A DNA stretch of 64,000 bases from Leucoraja ocellata (taxonomy: Eukaryota): contig JAWMAR010000070.1 of the NCBI GenBank assembly GCA_036785375.1, positions 4,278,001 to 4,342,000 of the forward strand. Direction: 5' to 3'. This document shows, piece after piece, positions 39,370 through 61,585 of this stretch. A program made the position numbers and the translations under genes. A model generated the notes under the pieces. The model searched no databases. It was not told the origin of the DNA and worked only from the letters and a program-made list of their open reading frames with translations. Within the stretch, counting starts at the first letter, position 1. Every line of letters starts with the position of its first letter.

Positions 39370-39636
39370 CTAAGAAACGACAGAGGCATAGATTGACTCA
39401 GTGTTCTCTGGAGTCACAGTAGAGTGGGGTTTCCGAATGCCCTTTGGGCAGTTGCTGTGAAAATTGACATCTGCGTACACGACAGCGTTTTCAGCCGCAT
39501 GCTGCCTTGATCTTGACTTCCTTTGACAATTCACCACTGCATACGTGATTCCACCTTCATTGTTATCCAAATGGTCACCTGCCCTGTTGTTTTCCAGATT
39601 TGAATCAACGTGGTTCCCTTCCAACACTGCCATTTC
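39370..39636 (-). CDS. Gene B terminal exon with three ITIMs
   Basis: ITYAVV, VVYADV and SIYASV match (I/V/L/S)xYxx(L/V); phase-0 acceptor TTTCAG|GAA; TAG stop. Confidence 0.88.
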   Translation of the reverse strand, partial: EMAVLEGNHVDSNLENNRAGDHLDNNEGGITYAVVNCQRKSRSRQHAAENAVVYADVNFHSNCPKGIRKPHSTVTPENTESIYASVVS

Positions 39637-42600
39637 CTGAAATATAACAAAATCCCATTTTACAACCTAATAGATTTGACAGGTCCTCAACAGATGTCTA
39701 TTACAAAGTAGGTCTCAAACTGTTCAGTGTACAGAACAAGCCATGGCTGCTGTTTACAACACAAAGATAGCGCAGCACGGTGGAGCAGCGGTAGAGTTGC
39801 TGCCTGACAGCGCCTACAACAGGTTTGTATTTTAGGTTAATTGGTTTGGTTTAATTGCAAATTTCCCCTAGTGTGTGTAGGATAGTGTTCGTGTGCGGGG
39901 TCACCAGTCGGCGTGGGCTCGGTGGGCCAAAGGGCGTGTTTCTGCGCTGGATCTCTCAACTGGAGTGGACTGGTGTTGCTAAACGGCCGGTGTAAACACA
40001 GATAATTCAATATTATATATTCTTCAACACTCAGAAAATGTATATTTCACATTGTTACCTGGGTTTCATCGTTGTCTTCACCGTGTGATGTATTGTACTT
40101 GGATTCTGGAAAATATGTTGTCGATAGGGCCATATCAGGAACAGGTTTAAACATCATTCATTTATATATTTCATTCCGTGTTCCATGTACCTTCTATATC
40201 TCGTGTTCCCCTTTCCCCTGACTCTCAATCTGAAGAAGGGTCTCGACTCGAAACGCCACCTGTTCCTTTTCAAGAGTCAAGGGAGTTTTATTGTCATATG
40301 TCCCAGATAGAACAATGACAATCTTACTTGCTGCAGCACAATAGAATATGTAAACATAGTACATAACGGGAGAGAAAAAAAAGTTCAGTGTGTATATATA
40401 CACATACACACATACTCAATCTGTTTATTTTATCCAGCTAAGCTGAGAACTACTATATTTGATGATTTTCTGTTGCGCTGCTGGCAAAATGTCGCTTCTG
40501 ACCCGCTAATTGCTAGAGCATTTAATGTTTATCTTCAGTATTAGCCACCATGTGCAGTTCCATCCAACACACAAACATCTACATGTTTTGTGCAAGACTT
40601 TATATTTAGGAGAACCCCAAAAGTACTTCAGTATATTTGCACGTACAGAGTAAGTGTATGCCCTCTTGTTCTGGTTACTCTACGTAATGTTCAGAATGGA
40701 TCATATTCCCTGTGCTCTACCCATTCCACCCTAAAGCTACCTAAACCTACCTGGTCTCCCTGTTGCTCAACACTTTAACTCCACCTCCCATTCCCACACT
40801 AACTATTCTGTCCTGGGCCTCATCCGGATGTTAGACTAACTGGTCTGTAATTCCCCGTTTTCTCTCTCGCTCTCTTTTTAAAAAGTGGGGTTACATTAGC
40901 TACCCTCCAATCCTCAGTAACTACTCCAGAATCTAAAGAGTTTTGAAAAATTATCACTAATGCATCCACAATTTCTTGGGCTACTTCCTTAAGTACTCTG
41001 GCATGCAGCCTCCTATCTTGCCCAGGGAATTTATCGGCCTTTAATCCATTCAATTTACCAAACACCACTTCCCGGCTAATCTGGATTTCACTCAGTTCCT
41101 CCATCTCATTTGACCTCTGGTCCCCTGCTATTTCCGGCAGATTATTTATGTCTTCCTTAGTGAAGACAGAACCAAAGTAGTTATTCAATTGGTCTGCCAT
41201 GTCCTTGTTCCCCATGATCAATTCACCTGTTTCTGACTGCAAGGGACCTACATTTGTTTTAACTAATCTTTTTCTCTTCACATATCTATAAACACTTTTG
41301 CGGTCAGTTTTTATGTTCCCTGCCAGTTTTCTTTCATAATCTATTTTCCCTTTCCTAATTAAGCCCTTTGTCCTCCTCTGTGGACTCTGAATTTCTCCCT
41401 CTCCTCTTGTATGCTGCTTTTTCTGGCTAATTGGTATGCTTATTCTTTTGTTTTGATACTATCCCTGATTTCAGCTCTGTGAACCTTCAAGTTTTCATCG
41501 GCAGCGGAGATAGTTGGCAGCTACAAGTTCATGGGCGTTCACATCTTGGATTACCTGCCCAGGCTAGACTTGCCCGGCCTCAACTACCTCCTCTGGCAGC
41601 TCCTGCCATATACCCACCGCCCTCTGTGTGATGCAGGTATGTCGTGCGTTTTCTATGTCCCTGTGAGGCTGCAGGCGTGATCTTCATTGTAACTGTACTT
41701 CAACGTGCTTGTTCATTTGACAATTAGCACGACTTAACCTGATTCGAAATACAATAGCAAAACACAAAAGCATATTCTAACAGCTGAGAGGATGAGAGTA
41801 TCTATGTAAATCTTACTTCTACCTAACCTCTTAGTTCTCATGCATCTCTGCTATTTCACACTCAGTTTCTGTACAATTATGTTAAAATAACATTTTATGT
41901 CACCGAGTCACCATGATAGCATCAAACATGATAGCATTATTGATCATTCATGCTTCCTCCTACTCTTTATTACTTTAATGCAGGGCATTTGTTGATTAGA
42001 ACAGGATAAAATCTCTTGACATTCTGTAAGGAGCTGAGACATGTATTTTGAAATTATTTAAGATAAATCAGAAACTCACCCTTGGTTTTACGCTTTTGGT
42101 ACCAAAAGAAGGCAATGATGAGAATCAGGAAAAGCACAGTGACACCAGACGCAACTATGTAAATGATCCTGTTGGACAGAAAATAGGGAAGGGTGAGACA
42201 TGGCTCATCATTGATTCTTGGCCTTCAGTAAAGAACAAAAGTCAAACATTTATATGGCACCTTTCATGATTTTTATGAAGTGTGCAGCAAAGGAAATGAG
42301 GTGTAGAGTCTGTTTCAGTGGGCAATGCAGCAGCTAATCTGCTCACAGTAAGGTGACATTGACCAACGATCGTGCAACTGGTTGAAGAGCAATTGGGTTC
42401 AACCATTAAGGAACCCTCCCTTCTCCTTCACTAAAAATGCATGGGAAATGTTACACTTTTATAGCAATGATTAGTTGAGTTGAGTTCAGCTGAGTTTGGT
42501 TTAGTTTAGTTTAGTTTAAGTTAGTTTAATTTATTTTATTTTAGAGATACAACATGGAAACAGGACTTTCCGACCACCAAATCTGCGTCGACCAGCAATC

Positions 42601-45600
42601 ACCATATATTATATCTACCCGAAACATTAGAGACAATTTACAGAAGCCAATTAACCTACAAACCTGCACGTCTTTGGAATGCGGGAAAAAACGGGAACAT
42701 CTGGAGAACACCCACGTGGTCACTGAGAGAACGAACAAACAAACTCTGTACAGACAGCAACCGTAGTCAGGATCGATCACAAGTTTCTGGGGCAGTAAGG
42801 CAGCAACTACATCGCTGTCCGACCATGCCACAGTTATTGGAGTTTTCATATCTGACAGATAGCACGCTACCCTCCCTCAGTACTGCAAAGGTATGGTACC
42901 CGATTTACCCTAATATTTGCAGCTATCCTTGAAACCACCACTTTGTGAACACGGTTCTACAACCCTGTTCCAACCTCGGCGGACAGAACACTACGCCAAA
43001 GAGAAAACAATGCACTTCTTTCAACAAATCTCACCCCAATGCCATTTACATCTCCATCTCCACCAACATTGGTTTGGACAGTGACTGTTCGTTTAGGGTT
43101 GTCTGGAATATGGAACATCTACAACATATCCAGAAGGCGGCTCACCTTGACCATCTCAAGGTCAGCAGTGTGACATAACGTGCCTACCACACAGGGTCAC
43201 GTTCTAGGTGGAGACACTTCCTGCTGTTGGAGTGACTGACATTGAGACTTTGACAAACTCCGCAAGTTGGTGTTTTAGCCCATAATTCACTATGCATTTT
43301 CCTATCAGTACCACACCAGAGCAGGTCACAGCAAGGCAACGCAGCAATAGTTGTGTTTGGCAACTATGCTCATCTCACACCATGGGATGAGGTTAGTGAT
43401 GGAGAACTCATGGTGAAACCACAGAGAACGCCCTATAGAAACATGGAAACATGGAAAATAGGTGCAGGAGGATGCCATTCGGCCCTTTGAGTCAGCTCCG
43501 CCATCCATTGTGATAATGGCTGATCGTCCCCAATCAATAACACCTGCCTGCCTTCTCCCCATATCCCTTGATTCCACCAGCCCCTAGAGCTCTATCTAAC
43601 AAGAGAGGGTTAGATACTTGACGCCGTACGTCACGCTCGAAATGCCCGCGGACTTCGCTCGAACTTCACGTCACTCACTCGACCTCCGCGCAGCCCCCGC
43701 GTCCAGTTTGGTCGCGCTTGCCGCTTGTAGGTCGCATGCTGGTGGGACCGCCCCTCCACATCAGCAAGACAAAATGGTGACTGGACGATCGTTTCACTGA
43801 ACACATACGCTCAGTCCGCCTGGGATTATATGATCTCCCAGTTGCTAAACTATTTAACTCCCCCTCCCATTCCCACACTGACTGTTCTATTCTGGGCTTT
43901 CTCCATTGCCAGAATGAGGCCGAATGGAACTTGGAGGAACAGCGCCACACATTTCGCTTGGGCATCTTACCGCCAAGCAGCATGAATATTGATTTCTATA
44001 ACTTCAAATAACCCTTGCATCCCCTCTCTCTCCGTCCCTCCCCCACCCTAGTCATTGTACGAATTTCACTGTTGTCTTGTAGTGTTTCATTGTCTGTACA
44101 ACTCGTTTTCTCCTAGCCCACAGCTAACTATGGATCGTTTCATTCATCATCGTTACTTTTGTTGCATATCTTTCATTCAATGTTTTATATCTTTCTATAT
44201 CACCGTCGATATCGCTCTCGTTTCCCTTTCCCCTGACTCTCACTCTGAAGAAGGGTCTCAACCTAAAACGTCACCTATACCTTTTCTCCAAAGATGCTGT
44301 CTGACCCGACGAGTTACTCCAGTTGTTTGTATCTATATTCAGTTTAAACCAGCATCTGCAGTTCCTTCCAACACAATGAAAGTCGAAATTTGCAGAACAC
44401 ACATAGATGGCACCTAAGTTCAGAGTCTTGGCGTTGTGAGGCTGTGGTTCCACTGGCTGTGTCTGTGCATTCAGATCAATAATCTCTCGGGCCTTTAATG
44501 CCAGTGAACGGAAGACACAACTTTCTCCCAATTGAAGTCATCCCAATCAAAACACCAGCAATTAGTACATGGCACCTTTCATTGGAATCAGAGTAGTTTA
44601 CCTTGATAAAGCATTGGATCCTTTCGAAGTTTCACAAGAATATTCAAGTCCTGTTAGAACAAGGAAATAAAAATCAGTTTCACTGATTTTCACTTGCAGT
44701 TGAAGAAGAGAGCATGCTTGTCCGATGTAAGGAGTTTATAGGTTTAATAGACAGGGCAATGTTTCTCCAGTGTAATTTGCAGCAAATGGGAGATGCTTGC
44801 ACAACTCAGGTACAACTCAGGTCGCCAACATTAGGGCGGCATAGCGGTAGAGTTGCTGCCTTGCAGCGCCAGAGACCCGGGTTCAATCCTGACTACGGGT
44901 ACAATCTGCACTGACTTCGTATGTTCTCCCTGTGACCGCGTGGGTTTTATTCAAATGCTCCGGTTTTCTCCCACATTCTAAAGTCGTGCAGGTTTTGAGG
45001 TTAACTGCCTTCTGTAAATTGTCCCTAGTGAGTAGGATGGAATTGGTGCACCGGTTAAAGGCAGTTGCTTCCACCTGGATTTCTAAACCAAACTAAAGGA
45101 GGTGATTTTATGCGAGGGATAGTGCCTGGGATGAAACATTACAGTTCGAAGGAGAAGGCTGGATAGATGGGGATTTTAATCCATATAGGAAAAGAAGGGG
45201 GAACCTATTACCGGTGTGTAAAGCTACGAGGAACATAGATAGTGTATTTTGTGGGAAATCAGCACAGCAGATGTACGAAGAAGTGGAGAACATAGGGTTG
45301 GGTTAAGGAGTAGAATATTTGGAGGGTATCTGAGCAAGAAGTATTTTTAAGCTTAGATAGTGGAGGCACTTGGATTGTCAACTCTGAGAAGATTGTGGAT
45401 GATGGGCAGGTAAAATGGATTAGTATCGATGGTACTGAATGGTCAACATTAACACAGTGGACCAAAGCTGATAGGAGTTAATTCTATGAGGTAACTGCGG
45501 CCACATTTACTGATAATTTCTGTTCCTAACCCATATTTGAGTGTCGGTCATGTGGAGATGATGGAAAGTGAAAATGCTTGGACTGATGTCACTGCAAACC

Positions 45601-48600
45601 TATTTTCAAGCTGTGTAAACATAAGAGGCAGTTCTAACAGGGAAGCTGGCCTACACCAGCAATGGGAAATCTGTGGCTGGAGCCCAGCAACCAAGTATTG
45701 ACAAATGGACCATAATATTATCATTTTAATCTTGATGTTAATTAAAGAACGTGCATGGATTTCAGGGTGTCGGGGTTATGGGGAGAAGGCAAGAGAATGG
45801 GGTGAAGAGGGGAAGAGACATCAGCCATGATTGAATGGTCTATTACTGCTTCTATCACTTGTGATCCTATGAACCACCCCACCGCACTTCCCCTTCTTCT
45901 CCTCATTCCCTCCACTACTTACCAGTGCCGTTGATTTTCACCAGGAAACTACAGGGCACGTCACTGCTGGAGATGGACACGTTGACCATTTCACTGGATT
46001 TTGATCCTTTATTATTTGAGGCTGTGCAATAATATTGATGGTGCTGGTGTTTGAAGGATTGACAATGTAGATCCAGGGCATTGTTGTCTGAGATCTTTGA
46101 ATCCCCTGATGGGATCTTTTCATACCAGCCGTAGTTAATGGGAAGGGATCCCCGGACCGACTCACAAGAAACTGTCGCTGAGCCCCCGAGACAAGAGACA
46201 TCGGCTGGTGACAGAAACCCAAGCACAGGAACAGACACGGGTTCTGTGGGAAAGGAGCAAACAGTCAGACAATGGGTGAACATCTGAAAATCAAACACTC
46301 GCCAATATCCACCATCTCTGTATCTTCGCTAGAGCCGCCAGGTTGGAATCTCACCCATCCATCTGCACAGAGTCATAGAGGCATATAGTGTAGAAGCAGG
46401 CCCTTCGATCTAATTTGCCCCCGCTGACCAACATGCCCATCCACACTAGTTCCACCTGCCCTTGCTTAGCCCATAAGCCTCCAGACGCAAGAGACTGTTT
46501 ATTTACTCGATCTATTCGTCGCGTGATTTTGTAGCTGCCGTAAGATCATCCCTCATCTTCCTGCTCACCCAGAAATAAAGTCCTAGTCTGCTCAATCCCT
46601 CCCTGGAGTTCAGGCACTCAAGTCATGGCAGCATCATTGTAAATCTTCTCTGCACCCAATCTTACTTGATAGCATCTTTCCTATAACATGGTGATGAATA
46701 CTGACCACAGAGCAGACATATCATCACACAATCTTCGATTCTCTTTTACATTTCAGGAATTGCCAGCAGGAAAAAGGGAGCATTGTTTATTTAACTGTCG
46801 GACCCATCCCATCTACATAGATTCGTAGAGTCATACAGTAGAAACCTCGGCCTAACTTGCCCGCGGGAACCAACACGCCAAATGTACACTAGTTCCACCT
46901 GTCCTTTCTTGGCCCTTAACCCTCTAAACATATCCTATTCATGTAACTGTCCAATATTTTCTGAAATGTTACGTTAGTACCAGCCATAACTACTTCCGTC
47001 GGCATTTCGTTTCATGGACCTACCAACCTTTGTGTAAACACGTTACTCGCCAGGTTCCTGTTAAATCATTCCCTCCTGATATGAAAACTATGTCCTCTGG
47101 TTCCCGATTGCCCTACTCTGGGCAAAAGACTGTGTATTTACTCGATCTATTCCTCGCGTGATTTTTGTGATTTAAAAAAAAATTAATAAATATTTTCATT
47201 AGAATCAATGCACAGTAGTATAAACGGTGTTTTACATATTACATTTAGTGTAAAACTTCTTGTTTTAAATGTATTAATAGAAAAGTAACAGAAGCAAAAA
47301 AGAGAAGGAGAAAGTTAAGTAAAGTAGTGATATTGATAGTTCGTGAAAGAATAGATAGAAAGAACCCGTAAAGATATAAAGCCGTAAAAAAAACGTGACC
47401 CCCCCACCGAAAACTAAATACATTAATTAGTAAATAGAAATAAAAAATAGAGAATAAAATAAAATAATAAGAAAACAAAACAGAAAAAGAATAAAAGGGA
47501 GAAGGGATATGCCTGCTTCATGTCTTTCCACACCCCTCACCCAGTTCTGAAACAGTTAATTTCCAGGGTTATGTTGCACCATATACCTGGAATAAGTCGA
47601 TAAAAGAGACCAAATCTTTAGCAATTGGTCTGCTTTACATGCTAGGACGAATCTCATATCTTGGAGGTGTAACATTTCAGACATGCTTGAAATCCACATT
47701 TTAAGCGTGGGGGTGGGTTCGTTGTTCCAGAATTTGAGTATACGTTTTTTTAGAAACATAGAAACATAGAAACATAGAAATTAGGTGCAGGAGTAGGCCA
47801 TTCGGCCCTTCGAGCCTGCACCGCCATTCAATATGATCATGGCTGATCATCCAACTCAGTATCCCGTACCTGCCTTCTCTCCATACCCCCTGATCCCCTT
47901 AGCCACAAGGGCCACATCTAACTCCCTCTTAAATATAGCCAATGAACTGGCCTCAACTACCCTCTGTGGCAGAGAGTTCCAGAGATTCACCACTCTCTGT
48001 GTGAAAAAAGTTCTCCTCATCTCGGTTTTAAAGGATTTCCCCCTTATCCTTAAGCTGTGACCCCTTGTCCTAGACTTCCCCAACATCGGGAACAATCTTC
48101 CTGCATCTAGCCTGTCCAACCCCTTAAGAATTTTTTAAGTTTCTATAAGATCCCCTCTCAATCTCCTAAATTCTAGAGAGTATAAACCAAGTCTATCCAG
48201 TCTTTCTTCATAAGACAGTCCTGACATCCCAGGAATCAGTCTGGTGAACCTTCTCTGCACTCCCTCTATGGCAATAATATCCTTCCTCAGATTTGGAGAC
48301 CAAAACTGCACGCAATACTCCAGGTGTGGTCTCACCAAGACCCTGTACAACTGCAGTAGAACCTCTCTGCTCCTATACTCAAATCCTCTTGCTATGAAAG
48401 CCAACATACCATTCGCTTTCTTTACTGCCTGCTGCACCTGCATGCCTACCTTCAATGACTGGTGTACCATGACACCCAGGCCTCGCTGCATCTCCCCCTT
48501 TGCCAATCGGCCACCGTTTAGATAATAATCTGCTTTCCCGTTTTTGCCACCAAAATGGATAACCTCACATTTATCCACATTAAACTGCATCTGCCAAACA

Positions 48601-51600
48601 TTTGCCCACTCACCCAGCCTATCCAAGTCACCTTGCAGTCTCCTAGCATCCTCCTCACACCTAACACTGCCCCCCAGCTTAGTGTAATCCGCAAACTTGG
48701 AGATATTGCCTTCAATTCCCTCATCCAGATCATTAATATATATTGTAAATAGCTGGGGTCTCAGTACTGAGCCTTGCGGTACCCCACTAGTCACTGCCTG
48801 CCATTGTGAAAAGGACCCGTTTACTCCTACTCTTTGCTTCCTGTTTGCCAGCCAGTTCTCTATCCACATCAATACTGAACCCCCAATGCCATGTGCTTTA
48901 AGTTTGTATACTAATCTCTTATGTGGGACCTTGTCGAAAGCCTTCTGGAAGTCCAGATACACCACATCCACTGGTTCTCCCCTATCCACGCTACTAGTTA
49001 CATCCTCGAAAAATTCTATAAGATTTGTCAGACATGATTTACCTTTCGTAAATCCATGCTGACTTTGTCCAATGATTTCACCACTTTCCAAATGTGCTGC
49101 TATCCCATCTTTAATAACTGACTCTAGCAGTTTCCCCACTACCGATGTTAGGCTAACTGGTCTGTAATTCCCTGTTTTCTCTCTCCCTCCCTTCTTAAAA
49201 AGTGGGGTTACGTTTGCTACCCGCCAATCCTCTGGAAATACTCCAGAATCTAAAGAGTTTTGAAAGATTATTACTAATGCATCCACTATTTCTGGAGCTA
49301 CTTCCTTAAGTACTCTGGGATGCAGCCTATCTGGCCCTGGGGATTTATCGGCCTTTAATCCATTCAATTTACCTAACACCACTTCCCGGCTAACCTGGAT
49401 TTCACTCAATTCCTCCACCTCCTTTGACCCGCGGGCCCCTGCTATATCGGGCCCCTGCTATATGTTATCAAGCCATGGTTAAGGAGAGAATTTTGGAACG
49501 AAATCAGCTTAGAGCCGGCTTCCATTGTTCCAAAAATAATCAATTCAGTGTTGGGGTACAATTTTATTTTAAACTCGCAGGATTTTTTTACCTGCAATAA
49601 AATCACCCCTCATCCTCCTGCGCTCCAAGGTATAAAGGCCTAATCTGCTCAACCCCTCCCTGTATACCAGGCCCTCAAGTCATCGCAACATCCTTGTAAA
49701 TCATCTCTGCTCCTTCTCCTCACAATCCATTTACCAGATTTAGACATATCTGTGTCTCTCCATCCTCCCAGTTGCCAGAACTACCATGTCTGGCACTGGA
49801 CCAGTACACAGCAGCACCATCTCTCTTTGTTTTACAATTCCAGCATCTGCAGTTAATCTTCTTTTAATCTGAAACTCTGCTTTTAATCTGAACATTCAAA
49901 TGCCTCATTAGTACAACAGTATCAACAACTTTTTAATTTCCTTGCATAAAATTGTTGATGGCGATACTGTTGCAATATTAAGGTGTGTGAATGGCGGTAT
50001 TGTAGAATAGTGTGTAGGGAGCGAATGGGAAAGTGGAATAACATAGAACTGGTGTGACCGGTGATCGCTAGGTGGTGTGGACTCGGTGGGCCGAAGGATC
50101 CGTTTCCATGTTACATTTGTAAACTATTACTAAATATCCGGGCGAACATTTTTATGTAAACTCTACAAACCGTTCACATATTTTGTTTTATAAAGCGGGG
50201 ACCAGACCTGTGCACCAGACTCCCACCTAACAAATGTTTTGCCCGTTGCCAAAGTGGAGACATCAAGTCACTCATTGAGAAACCTACCTTCAGATACTTG
50301 GAGATATACTTTAAATGTTGGTTCGCCAGGTGTAGTAATTCCACAGCTGTACCATCCTGTATCTCCAGAGTGAAGATCCTCCACAGTCACAGTAAATATT
50401 CCTCGTGCCGGGTTATCTGTGATTGACACTCTTCCGTTCTGTCCATGTTTCCCATTTGTTTCACCTACATGTGTACACTGGCGACTTGTCCCAGGGCACC
50501 AGTATTTTGTGTGTGAGCGGTACACTGCTGCATAGTGACAATCGATTGTGATCGCTCTTCCCACAACCCCTCTTACTTCGCTCTCCGCCCACAGTGCACC
50601 TGCAACTGAAGGAAACATCTTTGATAAATTGAAGAGCAAAATTAGCCTTTCACAAACATATACGTTAGAGTATAATGTACAGGGGAGTCTGCCCACTCTA
50701 TTTCTTAACTCTGTTGAATTCCACCTAGATTGCGATGAGATACAGATACTGTACATCGTCCCTCACCATCTGCACAGGTCGTTCCAAAGCGCTTCCCAGC
50801 CAATGTGGGTATGAATGGTGAAGAATGATGTATTGAAGATGGAGCCTGTTGCAATTGGAAGGCGCTGTCTAGGGAGTCTTGGTCAGTTGCTGCAGTGCAT
50901 CGTGCAGATGGTGCAAACTGCTGCTGCTCGGTATCAGCGGGCGAGGTTGAGGATGGGGTGTCTATCATGCGCGACTCTGGATCATGACAAACCAAACACA
51001 AGTGTTCGGCGTAATTGTAGCCTAGGCCAGTGCTTCTTAAACTGATGAATGGTTCATCCAAGGGCGAATAAAATTATTTTGGGGTAAATTAGTTAATTTA
51101 TGTTTTTTGCTCATGTGACAAAATCAATTATCTATAAAATTATGCACAAAGGAAAATACGATGATAATAGCCAAAAGAACATAAGAACATTTAGTGGAGG
51201 GTGAATTAAATTTTGTAATAAAGACTCAAGGGTGAATGACACTGTAATAGTTTAAGAAGAACTGGCCTTGTATAAAATTGGTCTCGCTGATGTAAACCAT
51301 TCACACCCTCTTCTGGTCTCCACACCTACAGGGAAGTTCTTTTCAATATTATCTTTGACAAAAGTAAGGGTTATACTTGATGGCGTGACGGCCAAGTAGA
51401 TTCCAATTTAATTTTGTGAGATTACTGGAGTTTAACACAAATTAACAGAGTTAAAATCATTAACATGATCATGAAATTGTACATCCTCGTTTATAACTGA
51501 TGATGGATCCAAACAGAATGGATTTGGTTTATTTCTCTGTCTCAAAGTGCGGCAGCCAGAAAATAATTTTGATGGAATGCACTCAACCCTCAGGTATTTC

Positions 51601-54600
51601 TCTCATTTGCTGACATTTCTCACCACCTCCCAGGTGAAAGCAACAGGCAATCATTTACCAGTCCCCCAAACAAACTCTCGCATTTTACACCATGAGCTCC
51701 CGGTGGCTGCAATGATGCCGTCTGCAAATAACGAGAAATCCATGAACACAAGGTGAATGAATAGCAGCAGGTTCAGGGACACGAGAAGAACACTCACCTG
51801 CATTGTTCATTTCTGTCACATAACTGCACGTTCCTGCTCCTTTGAAGACTTTCACGTTGAGTATTTCACTGGATTTTGTCCCACGATTATTTGTGGCTCT
51901 GCAGTAATATTGACGGTGTTGGCCTTCGAGGATTTCACAACTCAGATCCAGTTGATTGCCAGACACGGTCGTTGAAACCCAATGCTCGTTCTTCTTAAAC
52001 CATGTGTAATGGATGGGAAGGGATCCACGGACAGACTCACACGACACTGACACTGAGCCTCCGCGACGTGAGGCATTTGCTGGTGACAGATATCTGAGCA
52101 CAGGAGCAGACACGGGTTCTGTGGGAATGGAGCAAACATTCAGTCACCTGTATGAACAGTTAAAAACCAAACACATGCTAAATCTCAGCAGCCCTTTATC
52201 TCAGCCCGAACCGTCCGGTTGATATCTCACCGGCTCATCTACATCTCTGTGAGTGTGCGAAGCCCAGAAACCGAAGAAGGTTAGAGTTATAGAGAACCGA
52301 AAGATGCCCATCACAACAGCTCATTCATGCCGACCAACATGTCTTTCTGGGCCATTTCCATATGTCCACGTTTCTCCCTTATCACTCGCAATGATCCCAA
52401 TCTACGCAAATATCAAAAAAATATTTTTAAATGCTGCTTTTCTAACTGCCTTAACACCTTCCCCTGGCAGCAGGTTCCATATACATATCACCCAATGTGT
52501 GGAAAATGTTGTCCCTCAGAACATATGTTGGGATGTTACGTCCTTTTAAGATAGACACAAAATGCAGGAGTAACTCGGCGGATTAGGCAGCATCTTTCGA
52601 GAGAAGTCGTAGGTGACGTTTCGAATCGTGACCCTTCTTCAGCCTGAGAATCACGAGAAAGGGAGACAGAAGAGAAATGGAAGGGTAAGGTGTGAAAACA
52701 AGTGATCAAAGGTGAAAATGTTTTTAAAAAATGTAGAATGGATCATTGTCAGCTGAAGGGAAGGCATACATAGAAACATAGAAACATAGAAATTAGGTGC
52801 AGGAGTAGGCCATTCGGCCTTCGAGCTTGCACCGCCATTCAATATGATCATGGCTGATCATCCAACTCAGTATCCCGTACCTGCCTTCTCTCCATACCCC
52901 CTGATCCCCTTAGCCACAAGGGCCACATCTAACTCCCTCTTAAATATAGCCAATGAACTGGCCTCAACTACCCTCTGTGGCAGAGAGTTCCAGAGATTCA
53001 CCACTCTCTGCGTGAAAAAAGTTCTTCTCATCTCGGTTTTAAAGGATTTCCCTTTTATCCTTAAGCCGTGACCCCTTGTCCTGGACTTCCCTAACATCGG
53101 GAACAATCTTCCTGCATCTAGCCTGTCCAACCTCTTAAGAATTTTGTAAGTTTCTATAAGATCCCCTCTCAATCTTCTAAATTCTAGAGAGTATAAACCA
53201 AGTCTATCCAGTCTTTCTTCATAAGACAGTCCTGACATCCCAGGAATCAGTCTGGTGAACCGTCTGTGCACTCCCTCTATGGCAATAATGTCCTTCCTCA
53301 GATTTGGAGACCAAAACTGTACGCAATACTCCAGGTGTGGTCTCACCAAGACCCTGTACAACTGCAGTAGAACCTCTCTGCTCCTATACTCAAATCCTTT
53401 TGCAATGAAAGCTAACATACCATTCGCTTTCTTTACTGCCTGCTGCACCTGCATGCCTACCTTCAATGACTGGTGTACCATGACACCCAGGTCTCGCTGC
53501 ATCTCCCCCTTTCCCAATCGGCCACCATTTAGATAATAGTCTGCTTTCCTGTTTTTGCCACCAAAATGGATAACCTCACATTTATCCACATTATACTGCA
53601 TCTGCCAAACATTTGCCCACTCACCCAGCCTATCCAAGTCACCCTGCAGTCTCCTAGCATCCTCCTCACAGCTAACACTGCCCCCCAGCTTAGTGTCATC
53701 CGCAAACTTGGAGATATTGCCTTCAATTCCCTCATCCAGATCATTAATATATATTGTAAATAGCTGGGGTCCCAGTACTGAGCCTTGCGGTACCCCACTA
53801 GTCACTGCCTGCCATTGTGAAAAGGACCCGTTTACTCCTACTCTTTGCTTCCTGTTTGCCAGCCAGTTCTCTATCCACATCAATACTGAACCCCCAATGC
53901 CTTTTGCTTTAAGTTTGTATACTAATTTCTTATGTGGGACCTTGTCGAAAGCCTTCTGGAAGTCCAGATACACCACATCCACTGGTTCTCCCCTATCCAC
54001 GCTACTAGTTACATCCTCGAAAAATTCTATAAGATTCGTCAGACATGATTTACCTTTCGTAAATCCATGCTGACTTTGTCCAATGATTTCACCACTTTCC
54101 AAATGTGCTGCTATCCCATCTTTAATAACTGACTCTAGCAGTTTCCCCACTACCGATGTTAGACTAACTGGTCTGTAATTCCCCATTTTCTCTCTCCCTC
54201 CCTTCTTAAAAAGTGGGGTTACGTTTGCTACCCGCCAATCTTCAGGAACTACTCCAGAATCTAAAGAGTTTTGAAAGATTATTACTAATGCATCCACTAT
54301 TTCTGGAGCTACTTCCTTAAGTACTCTGGGATGCAACCTATCTGGCCCTGGGGATTTATCGGCCTTTAATCCATTCAATTTACCCAACACCACTTCCCGG
54401 CTAACCTGGATTTCACTCAATTCCTCCAACTCCTTTGACCCGCGGTCCCCTGCTATTTCCGGCAAATTATTTATGTCTTCCTTAGTGAAGACGGAACCAA
54501 AGTAGTTATTCAATTGGTCCGCCATATCCTTGTTCCCCATGATCAACTCCCCTGTTTCTGACTGCAAGGGACCTACATTTGTTTTAACTAATCTCTTTCC

Positions 54601-57600
54601 TTTCACATATCTATAAAAACTTTTGCAGTCAGTTTTTATGTTTCCTGCCAGTTTTCTTTCATAATCTATTTTTCCTTTCCTAATTAAGCCCTTTGTCCTC
54701 CTCTGCTGGTCTTTGAATTTCTCCCAGTCCTCCGGTATGCTGCTTTTTCTGGCTAATTTGTACGCATCATCCTTCGCTTTGATACTATCCCTGATTTCCC
54801 TTGTTATCCATGGATGTACTACCTTCCCTGATTTATTCTTTTGCCAAACTGGGATGAACAATTTTTGTAGTTCATCCATGCAGTCTTTAAATGTCTTCCA
54901 TTGCATATCTACCGTCAACCCTTTTAGAATTAATTGCCAGTCAATCTTGGCCAATTCACGTCTCATACCCTCAAAGTTACCTTTCTTTAAGTTCAGAACC
55001 ATTGTTTCTGAATTAACAATGTCACTCTCCATCCTAATGAAGAACTCAACCATATTATGGTCACTCTTGCCCAAGGGGGCACGTACAACAAGATTGCTAA
55101 CTAACCCTTCCTCATTACTCAATACCCAGTCTAAAATAGCCTGCTCTCTCGTTGGTTCCTCTACATGTTGATTTAGATAACTATCCCGCATACATTCCAA
55201 GAAATCCTCTTCCTCAGCACCCCTGCCAATTTGATTCGCCCAATCTATATGTAGATTGAAGTCACCCATTATAACCGTTTTGCCTTTGTCGCACGCATTT
55301 CTAATTTCCTGTTTGATACCATCTCCAACTTCACTACTACTGTTAGGTGGCCTGTACACAACACCCACCAGCGTTTTCTGCCCGTTAGTGTTTCGCAGCT
55401 CTACCCATACCGATTCCACATCCTCCAAACTAATGTCCTTCCTTTCCATTGCATTAATCCCCTCTCTAATCAGTATCGCCACCCCACCTCCTTTTCCTTT
55501 CTGTCTATCCCTCCTGAATATTGAATATCCCTGGATGTTCAGCTCCCAGCCTTGGTCACCCTGGAGCCATGTCTCCGTGATCCCAACTATATCATAGTCA
55601 TTAATAGCTATCTGCACATTCAACTCATCCACCTTATTACGAATGCTCCTTGCATTGAGACACAAAGCCTTCAGGCTTGTTTTTACAACACTCTTACCCC
55701 TTACACAATTATGTTGAAAAGTGGCCCTTTTTGATTTTTGCCCTGGTTTTGTCTGCCTGCCACTTTTACTTTTCACCTTGCTACCTATTTCTTCTACCCT
55801 CATTTTACACTCTTCGGTCTCTACGCTCACACATTTAAGAAACCCTTTCCCTTTAACTCCATCCTCCACTGTCCCATTCAACACCCCACCCCCCTTATTC
55901 AGTTTAAAGCCACCCGTGTAGCAGTGGCAAACCTGCCTGCCAGAATGCTGGTCCCACAACTGTTAAGATGCAATCCGTCCCTTTTGTACAGTTCCCCCTT
56001 ACCCCAAAACAGATCCCAGTGATCTAAGAATCTAAATCCCTGCCCCGTGCACCAGATCCTCAGCCACACGTCCAGGTCCCGTATCTCCCTGTTCCTGCTC
56101 TCGCCAGCACGGGGAACTGGAAGCAAACCGGAGATAACAACCCTGGAGGTCCTGCTTTTCAACATTTTTCCGAGCTCTCTAAAGTCACGTTGCAGAATAT
56201 TCATCCCCTTCTTTCCGACATCGTTTGTGCCGACATGCACTACCACTTCCGGATGTTCACCTTCGCCCTTGAGGATTTTCTGCACTCTGTCCGTGACATC
56301 CTGGATCCTGGCACCGGGAAGGCAGCACACCATCCTCGCATCCCGTCTGTTGCCGCAGAAACCCCTGTCCGTACCTCTCACGATGGAGTCTCCCACTACA
56401 ATGGCCTTGCCTGCCTTAGGCCTTTTTGGTTTTGGCTCAACAGCCCTATTCGCATCACAGGCCAGTCCGCCGCTCACGTCTTCTGTCCCAACAGCTTCTA
56501 AGCGGATGAACCTGTTTACAAGAGGTACATCACCCGGGGACGTTGGCATTCCATGCTTCCCTCCCTTTCTCACTGTCTCCCACCTTCTCTCTTCCAGTAC
56601 CTTAGGTGTAACAATCGTACTGTAGGACTTGTCGAGGAACGACTCCGTTTCTCGTACGAACCGGAGGTCATCCACTTGCTCCTCCAGTTCCCCAACACGG
56701 CCCTTCAGGAGCTCTACCTGGATGCATTTTTCGCATTTGTAGCAGCCAGAGGCACCAGCGGTGTCCTTGACCTCCCACATACTGCAAGCATCGCACTAAA
56801 TCAGCTTGCCTGACATCTCCTTCTTTCGTCTCCCTCTCAAGCGTATTGCGTGGTCTCCTCTCCGAAGACTCTCGAGCCAAAGACTCACACTTTTCTCACA
56901 GGGCACTTCACTCACTGCCGCTCGCAAAGAGCTGTCCTGCTTAAATTGACTGATAAATTGCCTGATTTACCAATTTACACAGCCAATTCCTCAGTTTTCA
57001 ACTGTTTTCACCCCTCTCCTCACACTTGGGCTAGAGCCAATCAGTGGTATCTCTTGCTAATCTGTTGCTGCTGTTGTTCCTCCCAAATCTACAGCAGTAC
57101 TGAACAAAGACGGTGCGTCCTTGGCCTTTTAACTGTTTTCAACTGTTTTCAACTGTTTTCACCCCTCTCCTCACACTTGGGCTAGAGCCAATCAGTGGTA
57201 TATCTTGCTAATCTGTTGCTGCTGTTGTTCCTCCCAAATCTACAGCAGTACTGAACAAAGACGGTGCGTCCTTGGCCTTTTAACTGTTTTCAACTGTTTT
57301 CACCCCTCTCCTCACACTTGGGCTAGAGCCAATCACACTTGGGCTGCGGAGCCTCGGGATATCGGTGCTGCCCTGACCCTTCCCGGAGAGAACATAGATA
57401 AGGCATTTCAGTGGAGACGTCAAGTCAAGCGCTGCGAAACGTACCGTCAGATACTTGGAGATGTACGTTAAATATTGGACGGTCGCCAGGTGTAGTAATT
57501 CCACAGCTGTACCATCCTGTATCTCCAGAGTGAAGATCCTCCACAGTCACAGCAAATATTCTTAGTACCGGTATATCTGTGATTGACACTCTTCCACTAC

Positions 57601-59941
57601 GTCCGTGTTGCCCATTTGCTTCCACTAAAACTGTACACGAGCGATTCCTCCCACGGCACCAGTATTTTGTGTGTGAGCTGTACTCTGCTGCATAGTGACA
57701 ATCGATTGTGATCGCTCTTCCCACAACTCCTCTTACAACCGTCTCTGCCCACACTGCATCTGAAACTGAGGGGAGAAACTTTCAGATGGACCAGTTGACC
57801 AGGGAGTGACGGAGGGAACGGTGTCTTCGGAAAGCGGTGGAAAAGGAAAGGTGTGGCTAGTTATCTGGTTATGGGATCCCGTTGGAGGTGGCGAAAATGT
57901 TGGATGATTATATGTTGTGTGCGACGGCTGATGGGGTGAAAGATTAGTTTATTCTGCTTACCACCGGGGAAATGTCCGGGTGGAGAGGCTGGCTGGCTGC
58001 CGGGCGGTGGGTGGACAGTGGCTGTTGGGGGTGGGGGCCCATTGACGGGGCAGAGGGAGAGAGAGAAAGAGCGCGGGATGGGGAGGGAATGACTGATCGC
58101 TGAGGTGGGAGCGGGAAGCGGTATGAACTGCACCGGGAGGACTGATGAGCTCTGGGGGCTGATATTTTTTTTAACTCTCCGGGTATTCAGACCGCGAGCA
58201 ACACTTGTTCCTCACTGTGGGATTATAAGTTTGAGTCTGAATGCAAACTTCTGACGGGTGACATTTCATACAGTTCAGAGGAAGGGAAATGCGCTGAGTA
58301 TTCCACTTGAAGTGAAAAGTGAAGTGAAAGTGAAGTTAAATCCCACTTTTCAAGAAAGGAGCAAGAGAGAAAACGGGAAATTACACACCAGTTAGCCTGA
58401 CTTCGGTGGCGAGAAAGATGCCGGAGTCAATTATTAAAGAGGTAATAATGGGGCATTTGGAGAGCAGTAAAATAATTAGTCCAAGTCAGCATGGATTTAT
58501 GAAAGGAAAATCATGCCTGACTATCTTCTGGAATTTTTCGAGGAGGTGGCAAGTAAAATGGACGAAGGTGAGCCAGTGAATGTAGTGTATCTAGACTTCA
58601 AGAAATCCTTTGATAAGGTTCCGCACGGGAGACTGGTGACTAAATTGAGAGCGCATGGAAGGGTGTTGACGTGGATAGGAAATTGGTTGGCAGACAGGAA
58701 GCAAAGAGTAGGAGTGAACGGGTCCTTTTCTGAATGGCGGGAAGTGGCGAGTCAGTGGAGACGACAAGTCAATCGCTGCGAAACGTACCGTCAGATACAA
58801 GGAGTTCTACGGTAAACATTGGGAGGCCGTTAGATGTTGTAATTCCACATCTGTACCATCCTGTATCGCCAGAGAGAAGATCCTCCACAGTCACAGTAAA
58901 TATTCCTCGTGCCCGGTTATCTGTGATTGACACTCTTCCACTCCTTCCGCGTAGCCAAATTGTTTCCACCATATCTGTACATTGGCGATTCTGCACACGG
59001 CACCAGTATTTTGTGTGTGAGCGGTACTCTGCTGCATAGTGACAATCGATTGTAATCGCACTTCCCACAACTCCTCTTACATACATCTCTCCCCACACTG
59101 CACCTGAAACTGAAGGGGAGAAACTTTCAGATGGAGAGCAAATGAACAGTTTAGTGGAAATAGATACATTTTGAAGATTACATGAAAGAAAACTTAAATA
59201 GTTCCATGATGTGTCATATTGCTTCACGGCCAATGTCTCCGGTCTGAAGTGCAGGCAGTGCTGTCATTGTACCAGTTCTGTCGGTGTTCTGTCCCCGGGT
59301 CAGTACAATTTGTGTTCACTTCCCACTCCAGATCCCTGAACAGAAACTGGGCTGGGATCGCAGTGCGGTACTGAGGGAGCGCGGCAGTGTTGCAGGAGCT
59401 CTGCAGCCCGGATCATCACCCGCACCAGATCATCGGCCCACATCACACCCATCCTCACTCAGCTCCACTGGCTCCCTGTGCACCACCGGATTAACTACAA
59501 GATTTTACTGCTGACCTTCAAAGCCCTACACCACCTTGCTCCCCAATACCTCTCTGACCTGCTGCTACCATACACTCCTTCCCGGTCACTTCGTTCCTCC
59601 TCAGCTGCAATTTTAACTGTCCCCACATTTAGACTCAGCAGAATGGTTGCCAGAGCCTTTGGCTGCTCTGCCCCACGTCTCTGGAACACTCTCCCACCTC
59701 CCTTCCGTCACCTGGACACTATCGATCAATTCAAATCACAACTCAAAACACACCTGTTTAGATTAGCATACCCGACATAACTTCCACCATGTTCACCCTG
59801 ATTTTAATGACTTAAAATATTTTGTGTGTTTTTTTGTTTTTTGTTTTTTGGCAACTTAATTTTAATATTGATAATTGTATTGTGATTTTATGTCCTGTAA
59901 GGTGTCCTTGGGTGTCCAGAGAGGCGCCAGCAAATAAAATG

Positions 59942-60022
<81 letters not shown>

Positions 60023-61585
60023 ATGAAAGAAAACTTAAATCGTTCCATGATGTGTCATATTGCTTCACGGCCAATGTCTCCGGTCTGAAGTGCAGGCAGT
60101 GCTGTTATTGTACCAGTTGTGTCAGTGTTCTGTCCCCGGTTCAGTACAATTTGGGTTCACTTCCCACTCCAGATCCCTGAGCAGAAACTGGGCTGGGATC
60201 GCAGTGCGGTACTGAGGGAGCGCGGCAGTGTTGCAGGAGCTGCCTTTCAACAATCCGAGGCGGTGCCCGGCCTCTCACCCCACAGAAAGACCCCACTTTG
60301 CTATTTCATTGGCGGTGCCGCCGGCTGCGCTGCCAACATTCATCTCTCAACCGACACTGGGCAGGACCCGTGTTTTTTTAAATTATCAAATCATTTATTC
60401 AATTATTAAAAATAGTATTTACACTACAATAAAACAAGAACCCAGCACCATAATACAAGACAAACAAATATACTAAATAAACTACTATACAACTATGTTA
60501 CAATGCTTGTCAAGGATGTACTCAACCACAGGCGGTGCCCAGATATCCCGGAAATCCCCCAGGTGCCCGTGGACAGCGCCTGGTCCTTCTCGAGTCCCAC
60601 ACGGACGCGGAAAGCCGACCCGTGTTTAGACATTCACCGCCGACAATGCTTTCCAACGCCCTGACTGAGAACAGAGGACGGACGAGTTACGGGTCCATTA
60701 ACGGAGAGCGGGTCCATTAACGGAGAGCGTTTGTAGCGTCACAACGCACACCGCCAGATTCGGGGAATGTTTCTTCCCAGCTGTTATCAGACATCGGAAT
60801 CATCCTCCCATAACCAGAGAGCAGTGCTGAACTATCTACCTCTTTGGTGACCCTCGGACTACCCTTGATCGGACTTTGCTGGCCTTACCTTACACTAAAC
60901 TTTATTTCCCATTCATGTATGTAAGATGATCGATTGTAATCATGTATCTGGCAGGTTAGCACGCAACATAAAGCTTTTCTCTGTACCTCGGTACACGTGA
61001 CAATAAACTGAACTTGGATTTCAGCACGACTGGGCCGCGGATCCGATAGCGGATGGAGAGAGAGTTGGCGGTGGGTGGATAGAGCGAGGACAGTGGTTCA
61101 GTCTCAGACTCCGGGGAATTGTTGGGTTTGCGACAGAGTTGAGATGGACAAATGCAGGGAATATTTGAACTGACACAACGAGTCCACAATCCTGACTTCC
61201 ACCTCAGTTGTAAACACATTTTGTTAGTGTAGAATTAACTTCCTGCTGATGTTGGAACCTCTGTCCTTCGGTCCAGGTGTCTTGGAGTATCTGCTCCAAA
61301 TACATTCGCTATTTAATGCCTATATATGCCTATCATCAGGATGCAATTAGACCTAGTGTTAGCGGTGGTTAAACTACGAACATAGTCTAGATATTCAAAT
61401 GTGATTTCAGATCCGTCACCACAATGCACTGAGTTCCATCTCCCCCATTACATGTCTACACACACTTAACCATCTCTGCTGTAGAAAGGGTGCACGGGAC
61501 CCCAACCTACATTGATCATTGGAATATCAAGATCTGGCTTTCACTCACCCGGCAGCGAGGCGATGAGAAGAAGGGGAATCCACAT
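39370..61585 (-). CDS. Gene B (whole span): inhibitory MDIR-like / CD300-pIgR-like receptor, L-V-V-C2-V-C2-stalk-TM-cytoplasmic tail with 3 ITIMs, 696 aa
   Basis: Exons 61549-61585, 58789-59109, 57445-57765, 51798-52118, 50288-50605, 45923-46243, 44602-44650, 42080-42168, 40059-40105, 39370-39636. All introns GT-AG, phases compatible, total 2091 nt = 696 aa + stop. Confidence 0.85.
40059..40105 (-). CDS. Gene B cytoplasmic exon ESKYNTSHGEDNDETQ
   Basis: TTTTCCAG acceptor, CAG|GTAAC donor, 47 nt phase 1->0. Confidence 0.72.
40822..41470 (-). mobile_element. CR1 internal fragment
   Basis: ORF 40820..41281 matches CR1 ORF2 (KRLVKTNVGPLQSE...NYRPVSL). Confidence 0.88.
42080..42168 (-). CDS. Gene B transmembrane exon IIYIVASGVTVLFLILIIAFFWYQKRKTK
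   Basis: Uncharged hydrophobic run followed by basic stop-transfer residues; phase 2->1 fits flanking exons; G|GTGAGT donor. Confidence 0.85.
43775..44372 (+). mobile_element. Degenerate Penelope-like 3' fragment
   Basis: RFTEHIRS...LEEQ...FRLG followed by the typical pLTR tail. Confidence 0.65.
44602..44650 (-). CDS. Gene B stalk exon (G)LEYSCETSKGSNALS(R)
   Basis: Polypyrimidine-CAG acceptor, AG|GTAAAC donor, 49 nt phase 1->2; conserved paralog at 14895-14943. Confidence 0.75.
45923..46243 (-). CDS. Gene B C2-type Ig domain (FCRL-like), type b
   Basis: EPVSVPVL...VSCESVRGSLPINYGWY...QYYCTASN...SEMVNVSI; 321 nt, donor G|GTAAGT. Confidence 0.88.
47165..49592 (-). mobile_element. L1/Tx1-type 3' fragment split by the CR1 insertion (47165-47750 and 49463-49592)
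   Basis: KRILKFWNNEPTPTLKMW...LHLQDMRF...KIW resembles an L1 ORF2 C-terminus; reading continues on the far side (PNTELIIFG). Confidence 0.6.
47751..49447 (-). mobile_element. 5'-truncated CR1 copy of the same family (RT portion)
   Basis: 427 aa ORF nearly identical to the ORF2 C-terminal half; FADY instead of FADD; same 3' tail. Confidence 0.92.
50288..50605 (-). CDS. Gene B V-type Ig domain 3
   Basis: VAGALW...DCHY...KYWCPGTSRQC...GDTGWYSC; 318 nt, phase 1-1. Confidence 0.9.
51798..52118 (-). CDS. Gene B C2-type Ig domain (FCRL-like), type a
   Basis: EPVSAPVL...VSCESVRGSLPIHYTWF...QYYCRATN...SEILNVKV; 321 nt, phase 1-1. Confidence 0.88.
52867..55959 (-). CDS. CR1 ORF2: APE endonuclease + reverse transcriptase (1030 aa ORF; true start uncertain)
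   Basis: LNARS, GITETWL, GVVYRPP, MGDFN, SDH; NYRPVSL, QHGF, YLDFQKAFDKV, GVPQGSVLGP, FADD; uninterrupted. Confidence 0.93.
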   Translation of the reverse strand: MWDQHSGRQVCHCYTGGFKLNKGGGVLNGTVEDGVKGKGFLKCVSVETEECKMRVEEIGSKVKSKSGRQTKPGQKSKRATFQHNCVRGKSVVKTSLKALCLNARSIRNKVDELNVQIAINDYDIVGITETWLQGDQGWELNIQGYSIFRRDRQKGKGGGVAILIREGINAMERKDISLEDVESVWVELRNTNGQKTLVGVVYRPPNSSSEVGDGIKQEIRNACDKGKTVIMGDFNLHIDWANQIGRGAEEEDFLECMRDSYLNQHVEEPTREQAILDWVLSNEEGLVSNLVVRAPLGKSDHNMVEFFIRMESDIVNSETMVLNLKKGNFEGMRRELAKIDWQLILKGLTVDMQWKTFKDCMDELQKLFIPVWQKNKSGKVVHPWITREIRDSIKAKDDAYKLARKSSIPEDWEKFKDQQRRTKGLIRKGKIDYERKLAGNIKTDCKSFYRYVKGKRLVKTNVGPLQSETGELIMGNKDMADQLNNYFGSVFTKEDINNLPEIAGDRGSKELEELSEIQVSREVVLGKLNGLKADKSPGPDRLHPRVLKEVAPEIVDALVIIFQNSLDSGVVPEDWRVANVTPLFKKGGREKMGNYRPVSLTSVVGKLLESVIKDGIAAHLESGEIIGQSQHGFTKGKSCLTNLIEFFEDVTSSVDRGEPVDVVYLDFQKAFDKVPHKKLVYKLKAKGIGGSVLMWIENWLANRKQRVGVNGSFSQWQAVTSGVPQGSVLGPQLFTIYINDLDEGIEGNISKFADDTKLGGSVSCEEDARRLQGDLDRLGEWANVWQMQYNVDKCEVIHFGGKNRKADYYLNGGRLGKGEMQRDLGVMVHQSLKVGMQVQQAVKKANGMLAFIAKGFEYRSREVLLQLYRVLVRPHLEYCVQFWSPNLRKDIIAIEGVHRRFTRLIPGMSGLSYEERLDRLGLYSLEFRRLRGDLIETYKILKRLDRLDAGRLFPMLGKSRTRGHGLRIKGKSFKTEMRRTFFTQRVVNLWNSLPQRVVEASSLAIFKRELDVALVAKGIRGYGEKAGTGY
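55899..56816 (-). CDS. CR1 ORF1, zinc-finger + SGNH/GDSL esterase-like; TAG at codon 7
   Basis: GDSIVR, CLPGA, VHVGTND, DGLHLN motifs; reads MSGKLI*CDACSMWEV...CEKC. Confidence 0.85.
56995..57343. repeat. ~150-bp tandem repeat (two copies plus a partial) in the CR1 5' UTR
   Basis: Repeated cacccctctcctcacacttgggctagagccaatca... units. Confidence 0.85.
57445..57765 (-). CDS. Gene B V-type Ig domain 2
   Basis: Same V motifs (DCHY, KYWC..C, GDTGWYSC); 321 nt, open frame, phase 1-1. Confidence 0.85.
58340..58745 (+). mobile_element. CR1 RT fragment in the intron after gene B V1
   Basis: SQHGF...VVYLDFKKSFDKVPH. Confidence 0.8.
58789..59109 (-). CDS. Gene B V-type Ig domain 1 (CD300/pIgR-like)
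   Basis: ITIDCHY...KYWC-x6-C...RVSITD...FTVTVEDL..GDTGWYRC; 321 nt, phase 1-1, AG/GT borders. Confidence 0.9.
59410..59942 (+). mobile_element. Same L2 fragment in gene B intron 1
   Basis: ORF 59478..59780; ends in AATAAA followed by (TAT)n. Confidence 0.85.
59943..60021. repeat. (TAT)n microsatellite, tail of the L2 element
   Basis: About 26 perfect units; the paralogous positions are N-gaps (16471-16599, 28203-28549). Confidence 0.95.
61549..61585 (-). CDS. Gene B exon 1, signal peptide MWIPLLLIASLP
   Basis: ATG, hydrophobic 12 codons, phase-1 donor G|GTGAGT; four paralogous copies in the window. Confidence 0.85.

Follow-up and report, generated by a model that had tools for sequence, protein, structure and literature searches.

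We analyzed a 64-kb window of genomic DNA from the skate Leucoraja ocellata (C70:4278001-4342000, C70 being contig JAWMAR010000070.1 of assembly GCA_036785375.1) and found in it one minus-strand gene of ten exons (window positions 61585-39370) for a predicted immunoglobulin (Ig)-domain receptor. The joined frame is open over 696 aa, and its product would run from a leader through five Ig domains in the order V-V-C2-V-C2 to a short stalk, a transmembrane segment, and three motifs resembling the immunoreceptor tyrosine-based inhibitory motif (ITIM). All introns are GT-AG, the five Ig exons are uniformly phase 1-1, and there are no internal stops. The length of 696 aa follows from use of the upstream AG at each V exon, as in MDIR3 of another skate; the other choice of AG would give 690 aa. 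A preliminary description of this DNA had read a chimeric V-V-C2-V-C2 ectodomain from five Ig exons, and the open minus-strand frame bore this out. Judged by its sequence, this is MDIR3 as it occurs in L. ocellata, a real, intact, and ordinary member of the known MDIR family.

Compared with MDIR3 of the clearnose skate (ABC86797.1/UniRef100_A0S0E9; P0046 in our set), 543 of 694 paired residues (78.2%) were identical, and the two aligned collinearly exon by exon. Because a deposited protein is matched end to end at 78% identity, the gene model lies far beyond chance. Exon 1 (61549-61585, ATG at 61585) encodes the leader peptide, in which 10 of 12 residues equal those of MDIR3. It is followed by the V1 exon, of CD300/pIgR type (58789-59109; Pfam V-set, 1.8e-10; 70/107 residues), which has a second possible AG 6 nt downstream, and by the V2 exon (57445-57765; V-set, 1.1e-11; 77/107). 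The C2a exon (51798-52118; 86/107) carries an extra E-strand Cys and a C-terminal extension with a further Cys. For the V3 exon (50288-50605; V-set, 1e-12; 95/106), CD300f/c/a gave the best single-domain PDB matches (E ∼1e-17). The membrane-proximal C2b exon (45923-46243; 89/107) is followed by a 49-nt stalk exon with one Cys (44602-44650; 11/16), a transmembrane exon whose hydrophobic span has no charged residue (42080-42168; 24/30), and a first cytoplasmic exon (40059-40105; 10/16). The second cytoplasmic exon (39370-39636) holds ITYAVV, VVYADV, and SIYASV as well as the stop codon; the same three motifs are present in MDIR3. Among the Ig domains, V1 (65%) and V2 (72%) had diverged most from MDIR3, and the remaining three were 80 to 90% identical. 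A candidate exon at 43102-43050 was discarded; its phases do not fit, and MDIR3 does not contain it. Copies of LINE-type retroelements lie in the introns (47756-49457 and 52768-56795, minus strand), where they keep long reading frames open over 440 and 298 aa.

A search with C2b yielded 128 homologous proteins among 251 candidates. The best 120 of the 128 were all named as coming from cartilaginous fish, and two of them carry the names MDIR3 and MDIR5. V-C was the most common domain order in these 120 (31 proteins), followed by V-C-V-C (26), V-C-V-C-V-C (14), and V-V-C-V-C (6). Four Amblyraja models with V-V-C-V-C order were 71 to 86% identical to the present gene, and the holocephalan Callorhinchus has V-C members, one of them named MDIR2 (P0257). 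The preliminary description would have counted itself refuted by an earlier full description of the exact architecture, and precisely this V-V-C2-V-C2 order was already deposited as MDIR3. The gene is one more MDIR3-type member of a family said to have been described by Cannon et al. in 2006 (PMID 16738934); that work reportedly also noted a likeness to Fc receptor (FcR) homologs. MDIRs are still orphan receptors. According to PMC3031540, which cites ABC86797.1 as the skate MDIR3 accession, they form a multigene activating/inhibitory family likened to CD300, TREM, FCAR, and pIgR. Our literature search met MDIR as a receptor name in the accessible text of that paper alone.

Affinities of the V and C2 domains

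Each of the three V exons carries the second disulfide signature KYWC-x6-C claimed in the preliminary description, as do 238 of the family's 275 V domains. The CD300/pIgR-type label given to the V domains held as a resemblance, with CD300f/c/a ranking before pIgR D1 in sequence searches. Against PDB, V3 scored 68 bits with CD300 versus 45 to 52 bits with pIgR D1, and a profile of 7 V exons gave 109 bits for CD300, 72 to 79 for pIgR D1, 51 for FCMR, and 45 for TREM2. By these scores, the V domains are nearest to CD300f/c/a, with pIgR D1 next. In the reverse direction, MDIR V exons were the best matches of bird pIgR D1 in the skate genome (E 7e-12, 35% identity); 146 of the best 150 of 181 candidates were located on C70 or C1141. 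A long loop in pIgR D1 bears polymeric-Ig binding. The interval from the B-strand Cys to the C-strand Trp measured 12 residues in 234 family V domains and 13 in 37, the other 4 of the 275 being gapped, so that the 14-residue loop of pIgR D1 and FCAMR occurred in 0 of 271 ungapped domains. The controls, namely pIgR D1 of sheep and of bird and two FCAMR domains, all have 14 residues there (FCMR was not among these controls).

For both C2a and C2b, the best PDB sequence match was FCRL5, through its repeats from residue 268 onward and with at most 37 bits. The match starts at D3/D4; FCRL5 D1/D2 scored ∼0 bits against MDIR C2. In PMC12757038, IgG binding by FCRL5 is mapped to D1-D3, and PMC4016189 describes the FCRL ectodomain as entirely C2, of D1, D2, and D3 types. 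On Pfam, C2a matched Ig_C17orf99 and Ig_2 above the cutoff, and the Ig_3/Ig_2 matches of C2b all remained below it. A C2 domain from a skate PECAM-like gene on contig C123, used as a control, likewise matched FCRL5 first. We also ran a profile search against 1.84 billion representatives and examined the best 150 of 1,098 hits. Among these, the highest-scoring C2 domain outside the family was a myelin-protein-like domain of lungfish (49 bits), FCRL-type domains reached 48 bits, and no strong MDIR-type V joined to an MDIR-type C2 was found outside cartilaginous fish.

A tree of C2 domains was built from 58 rows and ∼92 columns after removal of 20 of 78 rows that were near-duplicates or other domain types. 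Mammalian PECAM1/MILR1 were not among the rows, and five FCRL and most CD22-like rows, unnamed in the database, were labeled in the analysis. MDIR C2 domains, including those of MDIR3, MDIR5, shark, ray, and Callorhinchus, formed one clade of 13 rows (support 100/95). Its sister combined FCRL with the skate PECAM-like domains (95/80), and CD22-like domains stood apart (96/84). A 27-row tree gave the same result, joining FCRL and skate PECAM-like domains without MDIR (94/83). Contrary to the trees, pairwise C2 scores pointed to FCRL (125 to 131 versus 90 to 94 for skate PECAM-like). A grouping of MDIR with FCRL was not rejected by the AU test (p = 0.069); since two different tests returned identical values (16.32, 0.0689), we count them as one doubtful result. 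The preliminary label of FCRL-type C2 stood as a resemblance, FCRL5 repeats being the top match; in the trees, the MDIR domains form a clade of their own beside FCRL and PECAM-like domains. Since FCRL joined the skate PECAM-like domains ahead of MDIR C2 in both trees, "FCRL-D5/PECAM-type" is the better name.

An extra Cys pair, in the E strand and the tail, was present in 251 of 264 MDIR C2 domains; two Cys only were found in 37 of 45 non-MDIR rows. This pattern suggests a disulfide between E strand and tail in MDIR C2. An obligatory pairing of an A′-strand Cys with the stalk-exon Cys was rejected, with 100 of 264 domains discordant, although the two showed an association (76/70/30/88; Fisher p 1.5e-5, calculated from sequences that are related). 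The one confident C2 model showed an extra strand at 98-103. In fold comparison, MDIR C2 had a C2-type Ig fold that was closest to CD22 D3 (Z 9.2, rmsd 2.2, 81 residues aligned), with CEACAM6 nearly tied (8.7) and FCRLA D2 lower (7.6). Foldseek returned no match at E ≤ 0.001, and FCRL was not singled out by fold. The atlas gave matches at 0.93 to 0.95 to generic Ig, C17orf99, and FCRL2 clusters. In the model of a 593-aa homolog, the C2 domains had a pLDDT below 50.

Elsewhere in the genome, two PECAM-like genes lie in opposite orientation at C123:2.12-2.21 Mb, adjoining HECT, DEAD-box, RRM, and RhoGDI genes. Their homologs are named PECAM-like or FCRL5 in databases, and from gene order we take the neighborhood to be the PECAM1/MILR1 locus. 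At C20:10.76 Mb, a gene has a C2 exon of C17orf99 type and, after it, two small Ig exons.

The MDIR cluster and its chromosomal setting

The MDIR cluster spans ∼0.8 Mb: in genome searches, 76 of 80 C2 matches fell inside C70:3.87-4.69 Mb, and all V matches among the best 150 of 215 candidates were on C70 or C1141. Thirty copies of the stalk exon were found on C70, nine of them 89 to 100% identical, 20 at 83 to 86%, and one split. Within the window, two transmembrane exons of MDIR5 type (22761-22669 and ∼11830-11747, minus strand) have a basic residue at the outer end and no ITIM, and short ITIM-less tail exons of these copies lie near 22031-21984 and 11103-11059 (minus strand). From these features, the two copies are likely activating partners.

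Several further pieces of the family surround the gene. Open exons of a second gene start, leader-V-C2-V-C2, occupy 8330-287 (minus strand) and continue past the window edge; a stalk exon 99% like that of the present gene lies just outside the window beside this second gene start (C70:4276924-4277074). In a broken copy at 18136-14882 (minus strand), a leader and a frameshifted V1 precede a stalk exon of MDIR5 type. We also noted an orphan leader at 30079-30013 and a V3 exon broken off after about two-thirds at 32605-32388 (both on the minus strand). Distal V-only genes at C70:4.71-4.94 Mb comprise three CD300-like single V exons and then tandem V exons without the second disulfide; C3751 and C4569 carry tandem V exons of another type, also without it. 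A lone MDIR-type C2 exon (67% identity) lies off the cluster contigs at C236:212200-212457.

The cluster is flanked (within C70:3.85-5.08 Mb) on the left by a G-alpha-i first exon (3.855 Mb) and a CCD48 gene and on the right by AHCY-like, GST-mu, and AMP deaminase genes, which we take to correspond to the human 1p13.3 block. Farther along the contig, at C70:8.1-8.33 Mb, RA/SARAH, SUI1, two kinase, IL10-family, and 6PF2K genes follow in this order, presumably the RASSF5-EIF2D-DYRK3-MAPKAPK2-IL10-PFKFB2 block that is home to human PIGR, FCMR, and FCAMR. The MDIR cluster lies 3.3 Mb from this IL10-family/PFKFB block and outside the expected PIGR slot, which we assume to be between the IL10 family and C1orf116/YOD1/PFKFB2; the linkage across 3.3 Mb is suggestive only.

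No V exon above 10 bits was detected in 400 kb around the IL10-family/PFKFB block, whereas control pIgR/FCAMR domains scored 33 to 76 bits; the sequence is interrupted by five gaps of 200 N, and one of these separates the IL10-family exon from PFKFB. On C1929, the contig carrying SARG and OTU1, 156 kb of its 186 kb likewise yielded no V exon. Genome searches for IL10 and TBK1_CCD1 came back empty, yet an IL10-family exon is present on C70. Because the search missed this existing exon, and short exons can escape, such negatives are weak. NHERF, GGA, NUP85, and Tweety, the human 17q25 markers for CD300 linkage, matched on C20, C48, and C519, not on C70. No V exon was found in 200 kb beside NHERF on C20, where gene order differs and the RAB37-GPRC5C interval, the CD300 slot, was not reached. 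DAD1, presumably a neighbor of teleost pigr, was tried as a linked marker and dropped, as it lies on C14, unlinked to the MDIR cluster. In literature that was largely open text and did not include the founding MDIR paper, neither the IL10-family/PFKFB linkage nor the extra C2 Cys pair was met.

Proposed function, alternatives, and known systems

We consider it probable, with good confidence, that the MDIR3 counterpart is an intact five-Ig type I receptor with three ITIM-like motifs, likely an inhibitory member of a paired cluster, and that its outer V domains likely recognize a surface ligand other than antibody. Beyond the exon structure, the open frame, the identity to MDIR3, the cluster setting, and the nearby MDIR5-type transmembrane exons, the mechanism is one that we infer. 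The family would have grown as a V-C2 module of phase-1 exons was duplicated in tandem and shuffled. The fast-changing V1 and V2 may bind the non-antibody ligand, with the C2 units serving as disulfide-stiffened spacers that set reach and rigidity. In CD300a/f, ligand binding leads to tail phosphorylation and recruitment of SHP/SHIP, and binding to the skate receptor would act in the same way; MDIR5-type paralogs with near-identical ectodomains would give the opposing signal.

Several points weigh against this proposal. The exon joins are predicted from genomic sequence, an inhibitory role is likely but argued from sequence features, and the non-antibody class of ligand is a guess. Of four sequencing runs compared with the gene, three look genomic and the fourth, presumed to be RNA, covers repeats only; their contigs contained no splice joints, which speaks neither for nor against the predicted splicing. 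The W-L-x-D motif, which we take to be the CD300-type lipid-binding motif, was present in a single one of the 275 V domains in the family, and lipid binding of the CD300 kind is therefore not supported either. Moreover, one of five C2 models was confident (pLDDT 81.5), and the other four ranged from 34 to 46.

Antibody is the obvious alternative ligand. The 2014 survey PMC4016189 and the 2026 review PMC13337447 report that searches of cartilaginous fish have turned up no PIGR, FCRL, or classical FcR, and the latter asks how these animals then opsonize and transport antibody. An inhibitory receptor for the Fc of elasmobranch IgM, IgW, or IgNAR, binding by a surface other than the pIgR D1 loop, would fill this gap; that MDIR V exons are the best skate matches of bird pIgR D1, and that cluster and IL10-family/PFKFB block lie on one contig, fits such a role. 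However, no family V domain with a scorable loop has the 14-residue form, and the C2 domains do not match FCRL5 D1/D2, so that both supports of the Ig-binding argument in the preliminary description were lost; CD300 also outscores pIgR D1 per domain. Some 30 diversifying copies would, in addition, suit paired receptors for pathogen or self better than a conserved Fc receptor, and we regard Ig binding by this gene as distinctly unlikely. A broader version makes the MDIR cluster the cartilaginous-fish branch of the PIGR/FCMR/FCAMR lineage, some members binding skate IgM, IgW, or IgNAR by a mechanism that predates pIgR D1. It is raised because the cluster lies on the same chromosome segment and the expected PIGR slot looks empty, and we hold it to be a long shot; if true, MDIRs would be the Fc receptors that sharks and skates have seemed to lack. 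The intact gene model makes an Ig-binding test easy.

As to origin, the V-C2 hybrid might be a relic of an ancestral gnathostome gene that later split into V-only PIGR/CD300 and C2-only FCRL. Its presence in elasmobranchs and in the holocephalan Callorhinchus agrees with this, as does the position of MDIR C2 outside the FCRL and PECAM-like group, expected of an old lineage; a V+C2 ancestor is one of two options raised in PMC4016189. But among the best 150 of 1,098 profile hits, a strong MDIR-type V with this C2 was confined to cartilaginous fish, the C2 lineages had already split (C123 of the skate carries separate PECAM-like genes made of C2 alone, and C20 a domain of C17orf99 type), and an exon shuffle specific to chondrichthyans accounts equally well for the data, which leaves the relic unlikely. 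That the chimera is an artefact, in which misassembly or the reader linked exons that belong to neighboring duplicates, is hardly credible. The window is heavily duplicated, with orphan leaders and broken V exons, and there are evident fusions among the database models for this cluster (e.g., P0041, with TRIM domains); against this, every exon is collinear with MDIR3 of another skate from end to end, and all junction phases fit in a frame free of internal stops.

A likely inhibitory MDIR3-type receptor can be set beside several known systems. Mammalian CD300a and CD300f are the best per-domain PDB matches of its V domains and share with it the second disulfide, an ITIM tail, and the paired-receptor layout. 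The CD300 ectodomain is a single V without C2, whereas five domains including two C2 are found here, and W-L-x-D is nearly absent in MDIR. pIgR, FCAMR, and FCMR are alike in their V-type domains with the second disulfide and in the IL10-family/PFKFB block on the same contig; MDIR differs in lacking the D1-type loop of 14 residues, in having C2 domains and an inhibitory-type tail, and in its location 3.3 Mb off the expected slot. FCRL5 and the PECAM1/MILR1 type share the PVS-P-L...GSLPI-Y...YYC-A-N motif, but MDIR C2 has the extra Cys pair and tail strand and falls in a separate clade, and three V domains stand here in place of the all-C2 ectodomain of FCRL. MDIR5 (P0039) and Callorhinchus MDIR2 have V and C2 modules in common with the present gene (364 of 493 paired residues identical for MDIR5), whereas their order is V-C-V-C or V-C; in MDIR5, Lys/Arg marks the outer end of the transmembrane segment, and the tail is short and ITIM-less. 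MDIR3 itself, from another species and 701 versus 696 aa long, differs mainly in V1 and V2 and has in common with the L. ocellata gene the V-V-C2-V-C2 order, the stalk, the uncharged transmembrane segment, and the three Tyr motifs.

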